Positions 3,276 to 11,737 of a DNA stretch of 64,000 nucleotides are shown here, piece by piece. This stretch comes from a virus (taxonomy: Duplodnaviria > Heunggongvirae > Uroviricota > Caudoviricetes), in the IMG/VR virus record IMGVR_UViG_2563366947_000002; one strand, given 5' to 3'. Under the pieces are notes generated by a model. The model saw only the letters and a program-made list of their open reading frames with translations. It made no database searches and was not told the DNA's origin. The translations under genes were made by a program, and so were the position numbers. Position 1 is the stretch's first letter. The number at the start of each line of letters is the position of its first letter.

Positions 3276-3578
3276 ATGACCAAAAAAATTAACATAAAGG
3301 ATTTCAGGGATGCGTGGCTTGATGATTTTTTTGAATTTTCAACACCACATAGAAAGATACCTCCTGATATTCATATGACATTGTCACGGAAGTTGGACAT
3401 TATCAATGCCGCAACTACCTGTAAGGATTTAAGATCACCACCAGGCAATCGGTATGAGGAACTGTCAGGGAAGCTAAATGGCTATTCATCAGTAAGGGTG
3501 AATAAGCAATATAGGTTAATTTTTAAGTGGGTTAACGGAAAGGCCGAGGACTTGTATCTCGACCCTCACAAATACTAA
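3276..3578 (+). CDS. higB: HigB-type toxin (RelE/ParE superfamily)
   Basis: 100 aa; C-terminal YRLIFKWVNGKAEDLYLDPHKY matches HigB killer-protein pattern; followed by HigA-type HTH gene. Confidence 0.7.
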   Translation: MTKKINIKDFRDAWLDDFFEFSTPHRKIPPDIHMTLSRKLDIINAATTCKDLRSPPGNRYEELSGKLNGYSSVRVNKQYRLIFKWVNGKAEDLYLDPHKY

Positions 3579-3648
3579 AACAGATACCCGGTTACGGACC
3601 GGGTTCTGACCAGAGTCCACTTAATACGCACGCTAGTAAGGGCAAAAA

Positions 3649-3987
3649 ATGAAACAGGCAACCAGAAAACCGACGACCGTAGGTGATATCCTGCTGTACG
3701 AATACCTGGAGCCATTAGAGCTGAAGATCAACGAGTTAGCAGAAATACTTCATGTTCATCGTAACACCGTAAGTGCTCTTGTTAATAATAATCGTAAGCT
3801 AACGATGGATATGGCATATCGCCTGGCAAAAGCATTCGATACTTCTGTAGATTTTTGGATTAATCTTCAGACCGCAGTAGATCTGTGGGAAGTCGAAAAT
3901 GATATGCGCGTTCAGGAAGAGTTAAGTCGTATCAATACTGCTGAAAAATTTATTTCTCAGCGTAACCTGAATAAAAAAGCAGCCTGA
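3649..3987 (+). CDS. higA: HigA-type antitoxin (XRE-family HTH)
   Basis: 112 aa; VGDILLYEYLEPLELKINELAEILHVHRNTVSALVNNNRKLTMDMAYRLAKAF matches antidote-protein HTH pattern; downstream of higB. Confidence 0.7.
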   Translation: MKQATRKPTTVGDILLYEYLEPLELKINELAEILHVHRNTVSALVNNNRKLTMDMAYRLAKAFDTSVDFWINLQTAVDLWEVENDMRVQEELSRINTAEKFISQRNLNKKAA

Positions 3988-4006
3988 TATAGTAAAACAC
4001 ATACAA

Positions 4007-4038
4007 AAAGCCCACTTAGCAAGTGGGCTTTCCTTTGT
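4007..4038 (+). terminator. rho-independent terminator after higA
   Basis: AAAGCCCACTT-agc-AAGTGGGCTTT hairpin followed by T-rich tract. Confidence 0.6.
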
Positions 4039-4043
4039 AATTA

Positions 4044-4403
4044 ATGAACATTAAACCTATCCGTACAGAACAAGATTATGAGGCCGCACTGCGTGCGGTC
4101 GAACCGATGTTCGATAACGAACCGGAAATGAATACTCCGGAAGGTGATTTCTTTGAGGTTATGAGTCTTCTCATTGAGGAGTACGAGAAGAAACATTACC
4201 CAATTGAGCCACCATCACCTATTGAGGCCATTAAATTCCGTATGGAACAGCAAGGGCTGACCGTGAAGGATCTGGAACCGGCAATTGGTAAGTCAAACCG
4301 TGTTTACGAAGTGCTTAATGGGACACGAAATTTGACGTTACCTATGATTCGTCGTTTACATGCCCAGTTTGGTATTCCACTGGAAAGTCTGGTTGGTGTT
4401 TAA
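4044..4403 (+). CDS. second HigA-family antitoxin-like HTH protein
   Basis: 119 aa; N-terminal IRTEQDYEAAL and C-terminal NGTRNLTLPMIRRLHAQFGIP HTH resemble E. coli K-12 type HigA antitoxins; no obvious cognate toxin directly upstream. Confidence 0.5.
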   Translation: MNIKPIRTEQDYEAALRAVEPMFDNEPEMNTPEGDFFEVMSLLIEEYEKKHYPIEPPSPIEAIKFRMEQQGLTVKDLEPAIGKSNRVYEVLNGTRNLTLPMIRRLHAQFGIPLESLVGV

Positions 4404-4453
4404 GTTTGGCGGTCTGGAGGACCGCTTTTTATCTAAAATAAAAATTAGAAGGT

Positions 4454-5203
4454 TTGATAGCTTGTATGGGCAAAAATTCATCAACAGAAAACACATCTAC
4501 AATTGACTCAATCAAGGGCACAATGGATGAAGCCATAAAAGATAAATTATTTAATAAATTATTTGCATATGTGGTGGTTTCATTTTTTGTCGTTAATTGG
4601 CAAGAAATACTAATTTTGTTTAAATCTAAATATGATATATACACAACACTGTCTATAGTATGGGTAGGGGATAAATATCAAATCCCTTATTTTGGAACCT
4701 TCATTGTATCTCCGTTTTTAGCTCACTTTGTTATGCCGTTTATATATGGCACTATTGCGTCCATAGTAATGCCTTATATTACTATGCGTATATCAAAACT
4801 AACTGGTAGAAATTATGCGCAAATAAGATACATTGACCATGAATTTGACTCAGAAGAGAAAGCAAGAGTAAAGGCGTTACTGAGAAACCTAAAGAAAAAA
4901 GAGGAAGAGCTTTTAAAATTAGAGGAACAAATAGAAGGTCAACAAAAAATACTGAATACAATCGAAGAAAAGAAGAGAGAGATTGAGAGTGCCAGAGTGG
5001 CTCTGTATCACGGTATAAAAGTAATTGTTGATATATATAAAGCAAAAGATAAAAGGATTTCCACCAAAGAAGATTTTGCCGATTTATTAAAAGCAATTGA
5101 AGGAAGTGATTTTTATAAAGACACTGGGTTGTGGGGTATTAATAATTTAATAGATGACGTGGAGACAATATATGAGTCTCAATCGACATCAAAGGACAAG
5201 TAA
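4454..5203 (+). CDS. AT-rich membrane/coiled-coil protein of unknown function
   Basis: 249-aa ORF, markedly AT-rich versus surroundings, hydrophobic N-terminal half, charged coiled-coil C-terminal half; likely start at a downstream in-frame Met (MGKNSS...). Confidence 0.45.
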   Translation: MIACMGKNSSTENTSTIDSIKGTMDEAIKDKLFNKLFAYVVVSFFVVNWQEILILFKSKYDIYTTLSIVWVGDKYQIPYFGTFIVSPFLAHFVMPFIYGTIASIVMPYITMRISKLTGRNYAQIRYIDHEFDSEEKARVKALLRNLKKKEEELLKLEEQIEGQQKILNTIEEKKREIESARVALYHGIKVIVDIYKAKDKRISTKEDFADLLKAIEGSDFYKDTGLWGINNLIDDVETIYESQSTSKDK

Positions 5204-5206
5204 TAT

Positions 5207-9130: not shown

Positions 9131-9748
9131 TCATTTTTGTCGGATCTTTTCCAGCATATTTAATTCATTATCACTTTCTGCTGCTGAGACGGTTGGCCTC
9201 ACATTTCCGAAATATTTCCTGTGAGACTCATGACTTATGTATTCACCGACAGTTTCATTCTTGAATATACGAATTTGACATATGCGAGATCCAACAATAA
9301 GTTCTACAGGGCTATTCCCATGATTAAATAACTCTAAAGATATACAGCCTCTGTACCCTGGTTGTATCATGGTATTTAATGAAAGACCAAGCCTTGTATA
9401 GCTGCTTCTGGACAATACATCAGCGTAGCAATCTGGTGGCAAACAAACATATTCTAATGTTGTTGCCAGTACCACTTGATTCGGGTAAACAATGAATCTA
9501 TCCCCAAGATCTCTCCTTGTTTCCTGGAAAAATGTTCTGATTGGTTGATGAGTATCATTGTTTTTAGAGGGAATTAACTCTATTGACGGCTTCCTTGTCA
9601 TAATAGACACTAAAAAATCGTAACCAAGTCTAAGGTCTATGGTGAAGTTCCCAATTTGGTTTTTATTTAGAAGAGGTTCAATGAACAACGACTCAGGTTC
9701 TTCTGATTCATAATATTGCAGCAATTCAGCTTTGCTTAGGAGATTCAT
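9131..9748 (-). CDS. dCTP deaminase (Dcd) family / dUTPase-fold protein
   Basis: GYRGCISLELFNHGNSPVELIVGSRICQIRIF and IDLRLGYDF align with E. coli Dcd motifs; start ATG at 9748 overlaps upstream stop (ATGA). Confidence 0.7.
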   Translation of the reverse strand: MNLLSKAELLQYYESEEPESLFIEPLLNKNQIGNFTIDLRLGYDFLVSIMTRKPSIELIPSKNNDTHQPIRTFFQETRRDLGDRFIVYPNQVVLATTLEYVCLPPDCYADVLSRSSYTRLGLSLNTMIQPGYRGCISLELFNHGNSPVELIVGSRICQIRIFKNETVGEYISHESHRKYFGNVRPTVSAAESDNELNMLEKIRQK

Positions 9749-10818
9749 TGTGCACTCCATTTTTCAAGAATCATTACGTTTCGAATCGATTTTTCAACCA
9801 AATCATTTATAGTTTTTTCTATGGCTTCTTTTGACAACCCAGACCATATACCCGTAGGTTTTTCCCATTCAGAGCATAAGTACTGCCAGCTGCTGTTAAT
9901 AAAAGCATGCATTTCATTGTGGTCGCGAATAACAAAAGGACGCACATTATCAAAAGCTGATTTCACATCAAGCAAAGGTGTCGGCAATGTCAAACAAGGA
10001 GAAATAATCTGCCCACCCTTATGTAAGGCTGATATCACAGCATTGAACATGCCAACAACTGGATTTTCCACTTTGTTCAAAAAGTCGCTTACAATTTTAA
10101 CTCTATCTTCTGTGGATGGGTGAGTATAGCTTGCAGGATGAGAGCCAGCTAATTTGTATAAGAAATCTACCCCACTTTTTCCAATAAATTGGGCACTAAA
10201 TAGATCTGCAAAATATTCTCTGCAATGATTTATCCAAATAACATCAGGTAGATTACTCCATTCTGGTCCAGGAAGTGTGCCTTTGTCCTTGGAACGATAG
10301 TTAAGACAGGCAAGCTCAGAAATACCTTTGCTAATATCAACGAAATGTCCCAATTCGTGATATAAAGGTATAGAGCATAATGGTCGTCTTCTGTACATTT
10401 CAGGTAATGAAATCTGGATTAATTCGACCTCGAATTTGACATTTAAAACTTCATCAAATAAAGAATACAAATTCTTGTTTACAGACTTAAAATAAAACCC
10501 ATGCATATCTGGAGATAGGGCAGTGGTTATAAGTGTTTTTTCACTTATCCATTTTTTACAGGCATCATTTAAGCAATAAACAATCTCGTAGGGAATTTTC
10601 TTTGTAGTACTGCCAGTGAAAAAATTAACTGCATCGGTGATAAAAAAAGTACAATCCGCAATTATTTTATCAGCAACATTCACATGGTTTTCATAGAGCT
10701 TATCTACCGCTTCTTGTAGAACAGCAAGATATTCATGCATGTCTTTAGAAAAATAGGGAGATTCTGATATCTCCCTTAGCTTATTTCGAACTAATGTAAG
10801 TTGTGTAAATGCAAGCAT
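9745..10818 (-). CDS. HExxH metallopeptidase-like protein (ImmA/IrrE-type motif)
   Basis: 357 aa; SIPLYHELGHFVD followed about 40 aa later by REYFADLFSAQFIG, the HExxH...E pattern of ImmA/IrrE peptidases; TAATG overlap with upstream gene. Confidence 0.5.
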   Translation of the reverse strand: MLAFTQLTLVRNKLREISESPYFSKDMHEYLAVLQEAVDKLYENHVNVADKIIADCTFFITDAVNFFTGSTTKKIPYEIVYCLNDACKKWISEKTLITTALSPDMHGFYFKSVNKNLYSLFDEVLNVKFEVELIQISLPEMYRRRPLCSIPLYHELGHFVDISKGISELACLNYRSKDKGTLPGPEWSNLPDVIWINHCREYFADLFSAQFIGKSGVDFLYKLAGSHPASYTHPSTEDRVKIVSDFLNKVENPVVGMFNAVISALHKGGQIISPCLTLPTPLLDVKSAFDNVRPFVIRDHNEMHAFINSSWQYLCSEWEKPTGIWSGLSKEAIEKTINDLVEKSIRNVMILEKWSAQ

Positions 10819-11123
10819 TAAATGTACTCTAATACATTCCGGGCCATTACGGGTTCTAACATATCTTCGCTAGTTACTTTGGTTAGCACCTGGGCGAGCG
10901 CCTTAGTGTGGCGTATCTCTACCGCGAGCGAGATGGACTCTCTGTGAGAAGGAATCTGTAATTGATCACCTTTATCTACACTTAAGTTTGAGGCTTCTCT
11001 GATCACCTCATAAACCCGTAACTTTAACTGCTGTGACACTTCTTGTTGAGATGCTATAAGCTGAAGTACAGTCTTGATTAACTTCAAAGAATCAGAAGCT
11101 TGCTGAGGAACCGCATAGAGCAT
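10818..11123 (-). CDS. small protein of unknown function, first gene of three-gene cassette
   Basis: 101 aa; strong AGGAGGGG SD; translationally coupled to downstream gene. Confidence 0.45.
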   Translation of the reverse strand: MLYAVPQQASDSLKLIKTVLQLIASQQEVSQQLKLRVYEVIREASNLSVDKGDQLQIPSHRESISLAVEIRHTKALAQVLTKVTSEDMLEPVMARNVLEYI

Positions 11124-11259
11124 AACCCCTCCTTTTCCCTTATCTATAACCGCTTTCTTTTTTCTGTGGATGTTAAAAGTAGAAGCGGTTTTTACCTTTT
11201 ATAATATATATAGTGTCTAAAACTAATTTTGGCACTATATATGGCATGATATCTATGTT

Positions 11260-11305
11260 TTAAAGACACAAAAGCTCTGTTAAAACAGAGCTTTTGTGTC
11301 TTTAA
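11260..11305. repeat. perfect 20-bp inverted repeat with 6-nt spacer
   Basis: TTAAAGACACAAAAGCTCTG-ttaaaa-CAGAGCTTTTGTGTCTTTAA read directly from sequence. Confidence 0.9.
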
Positions 11306-11449
11306 CTTGATCATTTTCTCGCTGAAGTGTATGTCAGGCTTAGCTCATAATCAAGTTGCTTCCAAGCTAAAAATGAGCTATTTCACTGAAACACCAAGAG
11401 CGGGATGTTTCATTTATTTGCGTTGGGCCTGACGGGGTGCAGATGAGTT

Positions 11450-11737
11450 TTAGCTCATCACACTATAACGACGGGGAACGGAATTCTCCATCAGGTCACG
11501 AATTACTCCCGCTTCATGTAGTTCCTCTGTCTCCCAGTATCTGTTTGTCACCAGATCGAGGCTGGCTATGACCTTGTGCCGGTCATTCGGCATAGCCAAT
11601 TTTTCTGCTATAACCATCAGTGAAAACTCTTCATCCAGTAGAATTTGATACCAGACTTTTGACAGTTCCAACTCTCTAATGAGGGTGAAGCGCCGCTCAA
11701 GTGTGGCGGCAGAATAAGTGAAATCTATTTTTTTCAT
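11450..11737 (-). CDS. hypothetical protein
   Basis: 95-aa ORF downstream of antirepressor-like gene. Confidence 0.4.
   Translation of the reverse strand: MKKIDFTYSAATLERRFTLIRELELSKVWYQILLDEEFSLMVIAEKLAMPNDRHKVIASLDLVTNRYWETEELHEAGVIRDLMENSVPRRYSVMS

Follow-up and report, generated by a model that had tools for sequence, protein, structure and literature searches.

A stretch of 64,000 nucleotides of viral DNA (Caudoviricetes; IMG/VR record IMGVR_UViG_2563366947_000002), which as a whole is referred to here as the window, carries a cassette of three overlapping genes that we call A, B and C. These genes encode a small helical protein, a zincin-type metallopeptidase and a protein of the Dcd family of deoxycytidine triphosphate (dCTP) deaminases, respectively. 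The trio is best read as a self-contained and horizontally mobile three-gene module, the effector of which would be the Dcd-fold deaminase. Based on domain content and genomic context, we tentatively propose that it is a protease-controlled defense or abortive-infection module that would deplete nucleotides by converting dCTP to deoxyuridine triphosphate (dUTP), and we put the chance that this proposal is correct at somewhat below even.

The cassette as a conserved unit

The initial annotation of this DNA described three minus-strand genes coupled by TAATG and ATGA overlaps, and direct reading of the sequence recovered all of these features at the same positions (Table 1). The junction between the stop of A and the start of B reads ...ATT TAATG CTT, and the junction between the stop of B and the start of C reads ...CAATGAAT. 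An upstream ATG at 9760 would extend the product of gene C to 209 aa, and the Dickeya homologue has been annotated by gene callers in this longer form. The cassette was also said to be more AT-rich than its flanks, and it is: the GC content of 9131-11123 is 0.374 versus a window mean of 0.474 (standard deviation 0.03, 2-kb windows), which makes it the lowest-GC 2-kb stretch in the whole 64 kb. A palindrome with an 8-bp stem (AGGGAGATATCAGAATCTCCCT) is located at the 5' end of gene B (10755-10776) and was scored as terminator-like on both strands.

The trio recurs in other genomes. When one genome per species was scanned, 50 loci were recovered, which belong to Alpha-, Beta- and Gammaproteobacteria, one Geobacter genome and Bacteroidota; the trio is thus found in about 50 species, with A always first. 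C is encoded immediately after B in 53 of 55 loci; of the other two, one lies on a truncated contig and one belongs to a very distant relative. A gene of the A family precedes B at every proteobacterial locus for which upstream sequence is present. In Bacteroidota, the slot of A is occupied by a gene of 94-104 aa with the same N-terminal pattern; because the similarity of its sequence to A is weak (profile-profile comparison with hhalign, E 1.3e-3), the assignment of this gene to the A family leans on position, size and N-terminal motif. Chance open reading frames (ORFs) can be ruled out, given that the order of the trio is conserved in about 50 unrelated genomes.

Sequence divergence within the trio is also coordinated. 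Across 28 loci, the pairwise identities of A, B and C correlate at 0.82-0.88, with mean conservation highest for C (58%), followed by B (40%) and A (34%), the fastest-evolving of the three. At the DNA level, window positions 11307-9145 can be aligned with the chromosomal copy in Dickeya (locus L002, 5509-7685) by blastn, with 68.75% identity over 2208 nt. Moreover, a natural fusion of B with the DCD domain, 631 aa in length, is encoded on two metagenomic contigs, with a gene for a 101-aa A-like protein upstream. Synteny, correlated divergence and gene fusion together strengthen the view, already expressed in the initial annotation, that A, B and C act as one functional unit.

The proteins encoded by the cassette

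Judged by its profile matches, the product of the last gene, C, is a bona fide Dcd-family protein with the deaminase residues retained, in agreement with the Dcd-like motifs noticed earlier. It matches Pfam DCD (PF22769) with an E-value of 1e-30 and 107.1 bits against a cut-off of 27, and NCBIfam TIGR02274 with 113.4 bits against a curated cut-off of 92.8. Profile and PDB comparisons identify a single-domain protein of DCD/dUTPase fold; its closest PDB relatives are all dCTP deaminases, and the solved Dcd structures can be aligned with it. Residues equivalent to R110, S111, R115 and E138 (E. coli Dcd numbering) are invariant in 53 of 53 homologues of C, and when S112 is added to this set the residues are kept in 52-53 of 53. 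The E. coli sequence that underlies this numbering agrees with the 1xs1 alignment over the part that the latter covers (residues 17-156). The homologues also keep a triphosphate-binding C-terminal lid homologous to that of housekeeping Dcd, and they share the C-terminal motif Y..RKY..VRP..S...D(D/E)L..L as well as a conserved 12-residue C-terminal extension, D-(D/E)-L-x-x-L.

The Asp of motif III (D128 in E. coli) is replaced by Gln in 52 of the 53 homologues and by His in the remaining one. Replacement of the motif III Asp by Asn in dUTPase abolishes hydrolysis and leaves binding unaffected (PMC4827122), and by analogy C is predicted to have lost the ability to hydrolyze dUTP. C would then be a monofunctional deaminase that releases dUTP. 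Around residues ~123-128 of C, three residues that correspond to the 124-126 loop of E. coli Dcd, near H121, are deleted. This loop region is implicated in feedback by deoxythymidine triphosphate (dTTP) and in cooperativity in DCDs, and its deletion might uncouple enzymes of the C family from feedback inhibition.

The initial annotation compared the product of the middle gene, B, with ImmA/IrrE peptidases because of its HExxH...E arrangement; the zincin signature withstands closer inspection, but the likeness to ImmA/IrrE does not. The residues H154-E155-x-x-H158 and E201 are invariant in 70 of 70 homologues, with E201 located in an E-Y-F-A-D context, and H233-P234 is invariant in these proteins as well. 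Peptidase_M78 (PF06114) gave no match to B at E <= 1 and none to the 70 relatives at E <= 0.01, and we rejected an ImmA/IrrE identity on the grounds of this missing signal. No helix-turn-helix (HTH) domain was found in B, and a Pfam scan gave no match to the Lit family (U49). What similarity there is points to M48 and to anthrax lethal factor. B scores 16.1 bits against Pfam M48 (PF01435), which is below the gathering score of 20.3; 15 of the 70 relatives have M48 matches at E <= 0.01 (the best at 2.5e-5), and 13 have weak matches to lethal factor. The combination of HExxH and a downstream Glu is common to other gluzincins and hence carries no specificity for M48. No homologue of B was found among solved structures with either the single sequence or a profile of 70 sequences, and a Foldseek search returned no match. 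B contains no hydrophobic 19-mer above 1.2 on the Kyte-Doolittle scale and no transmembrane segment, indicating a soluble, cytosolic protein. The family is rare, with about 200-550 clusters at the 50% identity level (549 in a set of 1.84 billion representatives). B seems to be an active peptidase and to represent a separate, unnamed zincin family with remote resemblance to M48 and lethal factor; with its specific partner, it would establish a new family of soluble, M48-related peptidases.

The first protein, A, was modeled with AlphaFold2 at a predicted local distance difference test score of 81.7, giving five helices preceded by a disordered stretch at residues 1-12. This disordered tail, which starts M-L-Y-A-V-P... 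in A itself, bears the most conserved feature of the family, M-L-(A/Y)-A-x-P, in which M1 and A4 are invariant; the pattern M-hydrophobic-x-(A/S) is kept across Proteobacteria and Bacteroidota. Pfam, structure and profile searches gave no significant fold or family match for A, and the PHROG families to which A and B are assigned are both of 'unknown function'. The possibility that A is an HTH regulator was raised by a match to LacI (E 0.09) and rejected: 25 other members of the family lack this match, and for this reason we judged it to be noise.

Predicted promoter region, carrier and genomic neighborhoods

Features of the cassette and of related loci are listed in Table 1. The perfect palindrome reported at its 5' edge is real and in the place indicated, with the correction that its arms are 22 nt long rather than 20 bp. 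Folded as RNA, it reaches -31.7 kcal/mol (z -8.9). A near-identical 22-nt palindrome is found upstream of the trio in Dickeya, where identity with the window is 93% within the palindrome versus 69% for the remaining cassette, and its inner core is retained in Aeromonas. The DNA homology between the window and Dickeya begins exactly at the palindrome, which was not found in the two cassette-free related plasmids examined (L057, L058). Comparison with Rfam gave only sub-threshold noise, so that its identification as a known RNA was rejected, and a scan for intrinsic terminators did not call it. The palindrome is probably an operator or an insulator.

Table 1. Coordinates of the cassette, its upstream elements and related loci; positions refer to the window unless a locus is named.
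Feature	Position	Strand	Description
Gene A	10818-11123	minus	ORF, 101 aa, soluble all-helical protein
Gene B	9745-10818	minus	ORF, 357 aa, soluble zincin (HExxH + Glu) flanked by helical domains
Gene C	9131-9748	minus	ORF, 205 aa, Dcd-family protein (dCTP deaminase / dUTPase-fold)
Ribosome-binding site AAGGAGGGG	11126..11134	minus	strong, 2 nt 5' of the A start codon; read from the sequence
Predicted sigma-70 promoter of the A-B-C operon	11234..11263	minus	-35 TTAAAA, 18 nt, -10 TATAGT
Second inverted repeat	11206-11221 / 11227-11242		16-nt arms, 5-nt spacer, 88%, overlaps the predicted -10
Perfect palindrome	11260..11305		22-nt arms, 100% complementary, 2-nt spacer, 5' edge of the cassette
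Mobile cassette extent	9145..11307	minus	DNA homology to the Dickeya chromosomal copy
B-C fusion P0256	L062 2050-3945		631-aa ORF
Bub-trio loci	L020, L021, L024-L029, L042 (e.g. L029 2975-7634); L063 6838-11495	same as trio	trio with Bub operon

A second element, described initially as an operator-like sequence at 11213-11229, falls inside a longer inverted repeat (11206-11242). In a three-way alignment of the window, Dickeya and Aeromonas, the inner portions of its arms, which read ATATATAGTG / CACTATATAT in the window, are conserved save for one compensatory change in an arm, whereas the spacer varies freely. The predicted promoter is located between the two conserved inverted repeats and matches the consensus at 9 of 12 positions; such sites are no more numerous in the region than expected from shuffling. 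In our reading, the inverted repeats are operators through which the cassette's own promoter can be repressed.

The window region is 100% identical to circular plasmids of ~90 kb from E. coli and Salmonella. These plasmids carry tail, baseplate, Ref, Icd-like and Rha/ant genes, an annotation which suggests that the carrier is a P1-like phage-plasmid. Eight of 5426 complete E. coli genomes contain the cassette, always on P1-like phage-plasmids. Among related phage-plasmids it is present in 8 of ~35, and the matches of the other ~27 are confined to the initial 45 bases of the query, which belong to the neighboring gene; in the two cassette-free plasmids examined, the slot holds one small, unrelated gene or nothing. 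The existence of related plasmids without this stretch indicates that the cassette was inserted at the distal end of the icd-ant operon. In the window, a 95-aa gene on the minus strand (11450-11737; phrog_7349, unknown function) is located between the Rha/ant gene and the cassette, and in the cassette-free plasmid AR_0119 (L057) the corresponding slot contains a 312-nt gene.

The initial annotation placed the cassette in a cargo region next to an antirepressor module and a higBA module. The Rha/ant-icd operon is indeed directly adjacent, but the higBA pair is found ~5 kb away. This RelE/ParE-HigA pair (~3488-4199) is followed by a truncated gene for an HTH protein and then, in a patch with a GC content of 0.32 (4478-5206), by a 243-aa ORF; the whole of ~3488-5206 resembles another slot for accessory cargo on the phage-plasmid. 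Outside the window (L001 1-561), the same plasmid encodes a full-length glutamine-tRNA ligase (glnS) and rdgC, which is unusual for a P1-like element.

Beyond these plasmids, most copies of the trio are encoded in bacterial chromosomes, in islands and on large rhizobial plasmids. The cassette had no match among 50,697 phage records, and only three loci in IMG/VR contain the trio, which is thus nearly absent from viral contigs; on these counts we rejected the notion that it is ordinary phage cargo. The trio adjoins integrases and lies in integrase-bounded islands. The island in Dickeya is bounded by integrase/AlpA, and there the trio is directly followed by a RosmerTA-like pair encoding a 375-aa HTH+M78 protein and a 199-aa protein (L002 7779-9521). 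Type III restriction-modification genes adjoin the trio, as do type I genes, which at L013 are suggested by an HsdM-like N-terminus. A survey of the two nearest genes on each side at ~40 loci (146 neighbors, without a matched background) found RosmerTA RmrA in 5-6 and Bub E1-JAB in 10 of the immediate neighbors.

The association with Bub genes was seen in Alphaproteobacteria, where at 9-10 loci the trio is located directly downstream of a complete Type I Bub operon, on the same strand and at a distance of ~70 nt. These operons encode Multi_ubiq+Prok-E2_E, Prok-JAB+ThiF and DUF6527 proteins (BubAB, BubCD and BubE), and the linkage persists although the B proteins at these loci share only 53-93% identity. 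On Agrobacterium pAt1, Bub genes are followed in turn by A, B, dcd and SIR2, and a CapH/CapP-like pair of HTH and ImmA/IrrE genes lies upstream in divergent orientation; VapBC adjoins the trio on this plasmid. Bub genes were not found within the +/-12 kb annotated around the window cassette, and only the alphaproteobacterial relatives have them.

Proposed function, alternatives and known systems

In the mechanism that we propose, C would be kept inactive in the resting cell in a complex with B and A, in which the conserved flexible N-terminal tail of A would be recognized in the catalytic cleft of B. Infection, or the shut-off of host expression, would trigger B-dependent proteolysis, either of A or of the C-terminal extension conserved in C, and this cleavage would release or activate C. 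The enzyme would then deaminate dCTP to dUTP and stop there, as its dUTPase-type catalytic Asp is replaced by Gln, and the collapse of dCTP together with the build-up of dUTP would block or corrupt phage DNA replication. The operon would be transcribed from its own promoter, framed by the two conserved inverted repeats, to which a repressor probably binds. That phage is the trigger, dCTP the substrate of C, and A or C the substrate of B is what we infer.

Several points weigh against this proposal. No DNA-binding domain is recognizable among 26 proteins of the A family, which leaves the palindromes without a candidate repressor, and PADLOC gave no meaningful match to A, B or C, with none for C at E <= 1. 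The survey of neighbors, restricted to the two nearest genes on each side, has no matched background with which its counts could be compared. The fusion protein could be an assembly or frameshift error, though two contigs carry it. The substrate of C could be another nucleotide, such as cytidine triphosphate or modified dCTP, and the combination of D128Q with the three-residue loop deletion might change its chemistry unpredictably.

An addiction or stabilization module of the toxin-antitoxin type is an unlikely explanation. C would then be a replication-arresting toxin, A a labile antitoxin and B the protease that degrades A, and the module would stabilize the phage-plasmid or island after segregation. 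A small, fast-evolving first gene and conserved palindromic operators at the promoter are reminiscent of autoregulated type II toxin-antitoxin operons; in addition, the carrier plasmid prophage already has higBA and the copy on Agrobacterium pAt1 lies beside VapBC. This is opposed by the absence of a detectable DNA-binding fold in A and by the many chromosomal copies located amid restriction-modification, RosmerTA and Bub genes. As toxin-antitoxin and defense roles are not mutually exclusive, this explanation can be separated only in part from the nucleotide-depletion defense that we favor.

We consider it doubtful that A-B-C supplies the output that is missing from some Type I Bub ubiquitin-like pathways. 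Conjugation of the ubiquitin-like protein and zincin proteolysis would in that case jointly gate the Dcd-fold deaminase, and the stand-alone cassette in E. coli would be a minimal version with the protease switch only. If true, this would constitute a new class of immune system, with a dUTPase-superfamily enzyme as its weapon and a dedicated metallopeptidase as its trigger.

Improbable, too, is a Lit-like role of B as the effector, cleaving a host or phage protein, with C serving as a nucleotide sensor or signal generator that would, for example, sense pyrimidine deoxynucleoside triphosphate pools altered by phage or make a deaminated activator of B. By sequence B is a fully competent zincin, with an active site invariant in 70 of 70 proteins, and the B-C fusion would suit a sensor-effector polypeptide equally well. 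The relative conservation of the three proteins argues otherwise, since C varies least and A and B vary most, and the conserved component of defense systems is usually the effector. Deaminated nucleotides do have a reported precedent as immune signals in the Kongming system (10.1101/2024.12.20.629578), but dUTP would make a poor alarm signal because the host Dcd produces it as a normal metabolite.

A role in accessory nucleotide metabolism, in which an extra Dcd would raise the supply of deoxyuridine monophosphate and dTTP for replication of the phage-plasmid and B and A would be maturation or regulatory factors, appears very unlikely. It would agree with annotation of C by the Prokaryotic Genome Annotation Pipeline as plain dcd and with its PHROG family (1663, 'dCTP deaminase'), a family of phage nucleotide metabolism. 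There is no metabolic rationale for an association with a protease and a small protein that is obligatory across phyla, nor for the family-specific D128Q; furthermore, the trio is rare on viral contigs and restricted to a minority of related phage-plasmids, and its neighbors are immune genes rather than genes of nucleotide metabolism. An anti-defense module of the phage-plasmid directed against host immunity, an alternative raised in the initial annotation and suggested by a cargo slot adjoining the antirepressor operon, is scarcely probable, because the trio is mostly borne by chromosomes, islands and large rhizobial plasmids rather than phages, has its own predicted repressible promoter and co-localizes with defense genes instead of phage early genes.

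No description of the trio was found in the searchable full-text literature, in which coverage of subscription journals is incomplete, so that a prior description is possible. Targeted reading of the papers on DefensePredictor, on a language-model defense atlas, on metagenomic selection, on BREX diversity and on Bub operons gave no description of it. Taken together with the PADLOC result, this upholds the original impression that the combination matches no described system. The trio thus appears to be undescribed, and it would be a form of nucleotide-depletion immunity in which both the enzyme fold and the protease switch are new. As the cassette measures 2.2 kb, has its own predicted promoter and already resides in E. 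coli, it would be cheap to test.

In terms of organization, the trio resembles RosmerTA RmrA, ImmA/IrrE-ImmR and Lit-Gol, in which a zinc metallopeptidase, presumably acting as a proteolytic switch, is encoded with a toxic or effector partner. Unlike the peptidase of ImmA/IrrE-ImmR, B is not an M78 protein and has no HTH, and genuine RosmerTA systems are separate neighbors of the trio, not the trio itself. B shares HExxH, the Glu in E-x-x-A-D and a T-H-P...R motif with M48 peptidases (HtpX, Ste24, BepA) and lethal factor (M34). The M48 family is typically membrane-bound or periplasmic, whereas B is soluble, lacks a transmembrane segment and possesses unique N- and C-terminal helical domains. 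C is similar to housekeeping Dcd (E. coli dcd; PDB 1xs1, 4xjc) in fold, family, deaminase residues and lid, and differs from it in the D128-to-Gln replacement, the three-residue loop deletion and the 12-residue C-terminal extension, as well as in being mobile, AT-rich and always encoded after a protease.

Type I Bub ('6E/DUF6527') operons and the trio both occur in mobile or defense loci with CapH/CapP-like regulators; some copies of the trio follow BubAB-BubCD-BubE, whereas the window copy and most others are found without Bub genes. Papers on Bub operons (among them Ye et al., 10.1101/2024.11.21.623953) state that their role is unknown and mention no deaminase or metallopeptidase partner. 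The operon-level link in Alphaproteobacteria would provide these operons with an assayable candidate output in the form of the deaminase.

The closest functional parallel is provided by dCTP-deaminase defense and AvcID. Deamination of dCTP is an established anti-phage strategy, according to two reports (Tal et al. 2021-22, 10.1101/2021.04.26.441389; Hsueh et al., 10.1101/2021.03.31.437871). The predicted output of the trio is alike, that is, deamination of deoxycytidine nucleotides that starves phage DNA synthesis, and in both cases the enzyme would be silent until infection and is carried on mobile islands. The enzymes of dCTP-deaminase defense and AvcD are said to combine a zinc-dependent cytidine/deoxycytidine monophosphate deaminase fold with an N-terminal kinase-like domain, and reportedly they are encoded by single genes or paired with a small RNA antitoxin. 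Unlike AvcID, C is predicted to be a trimeric protein of Dcd/dUTPase fold with protein partners, namely the zincin and the small helical protein. If the trio defends against phage, it would therefore be a second and mechanistically distinct route to dCTP-depletion immunity, differing both in fold (Dcd/dUTPase superfamily versus cytidine deaminase) and in control (a zincin and a small adaptor versus a small RNA or kinase-like domain).

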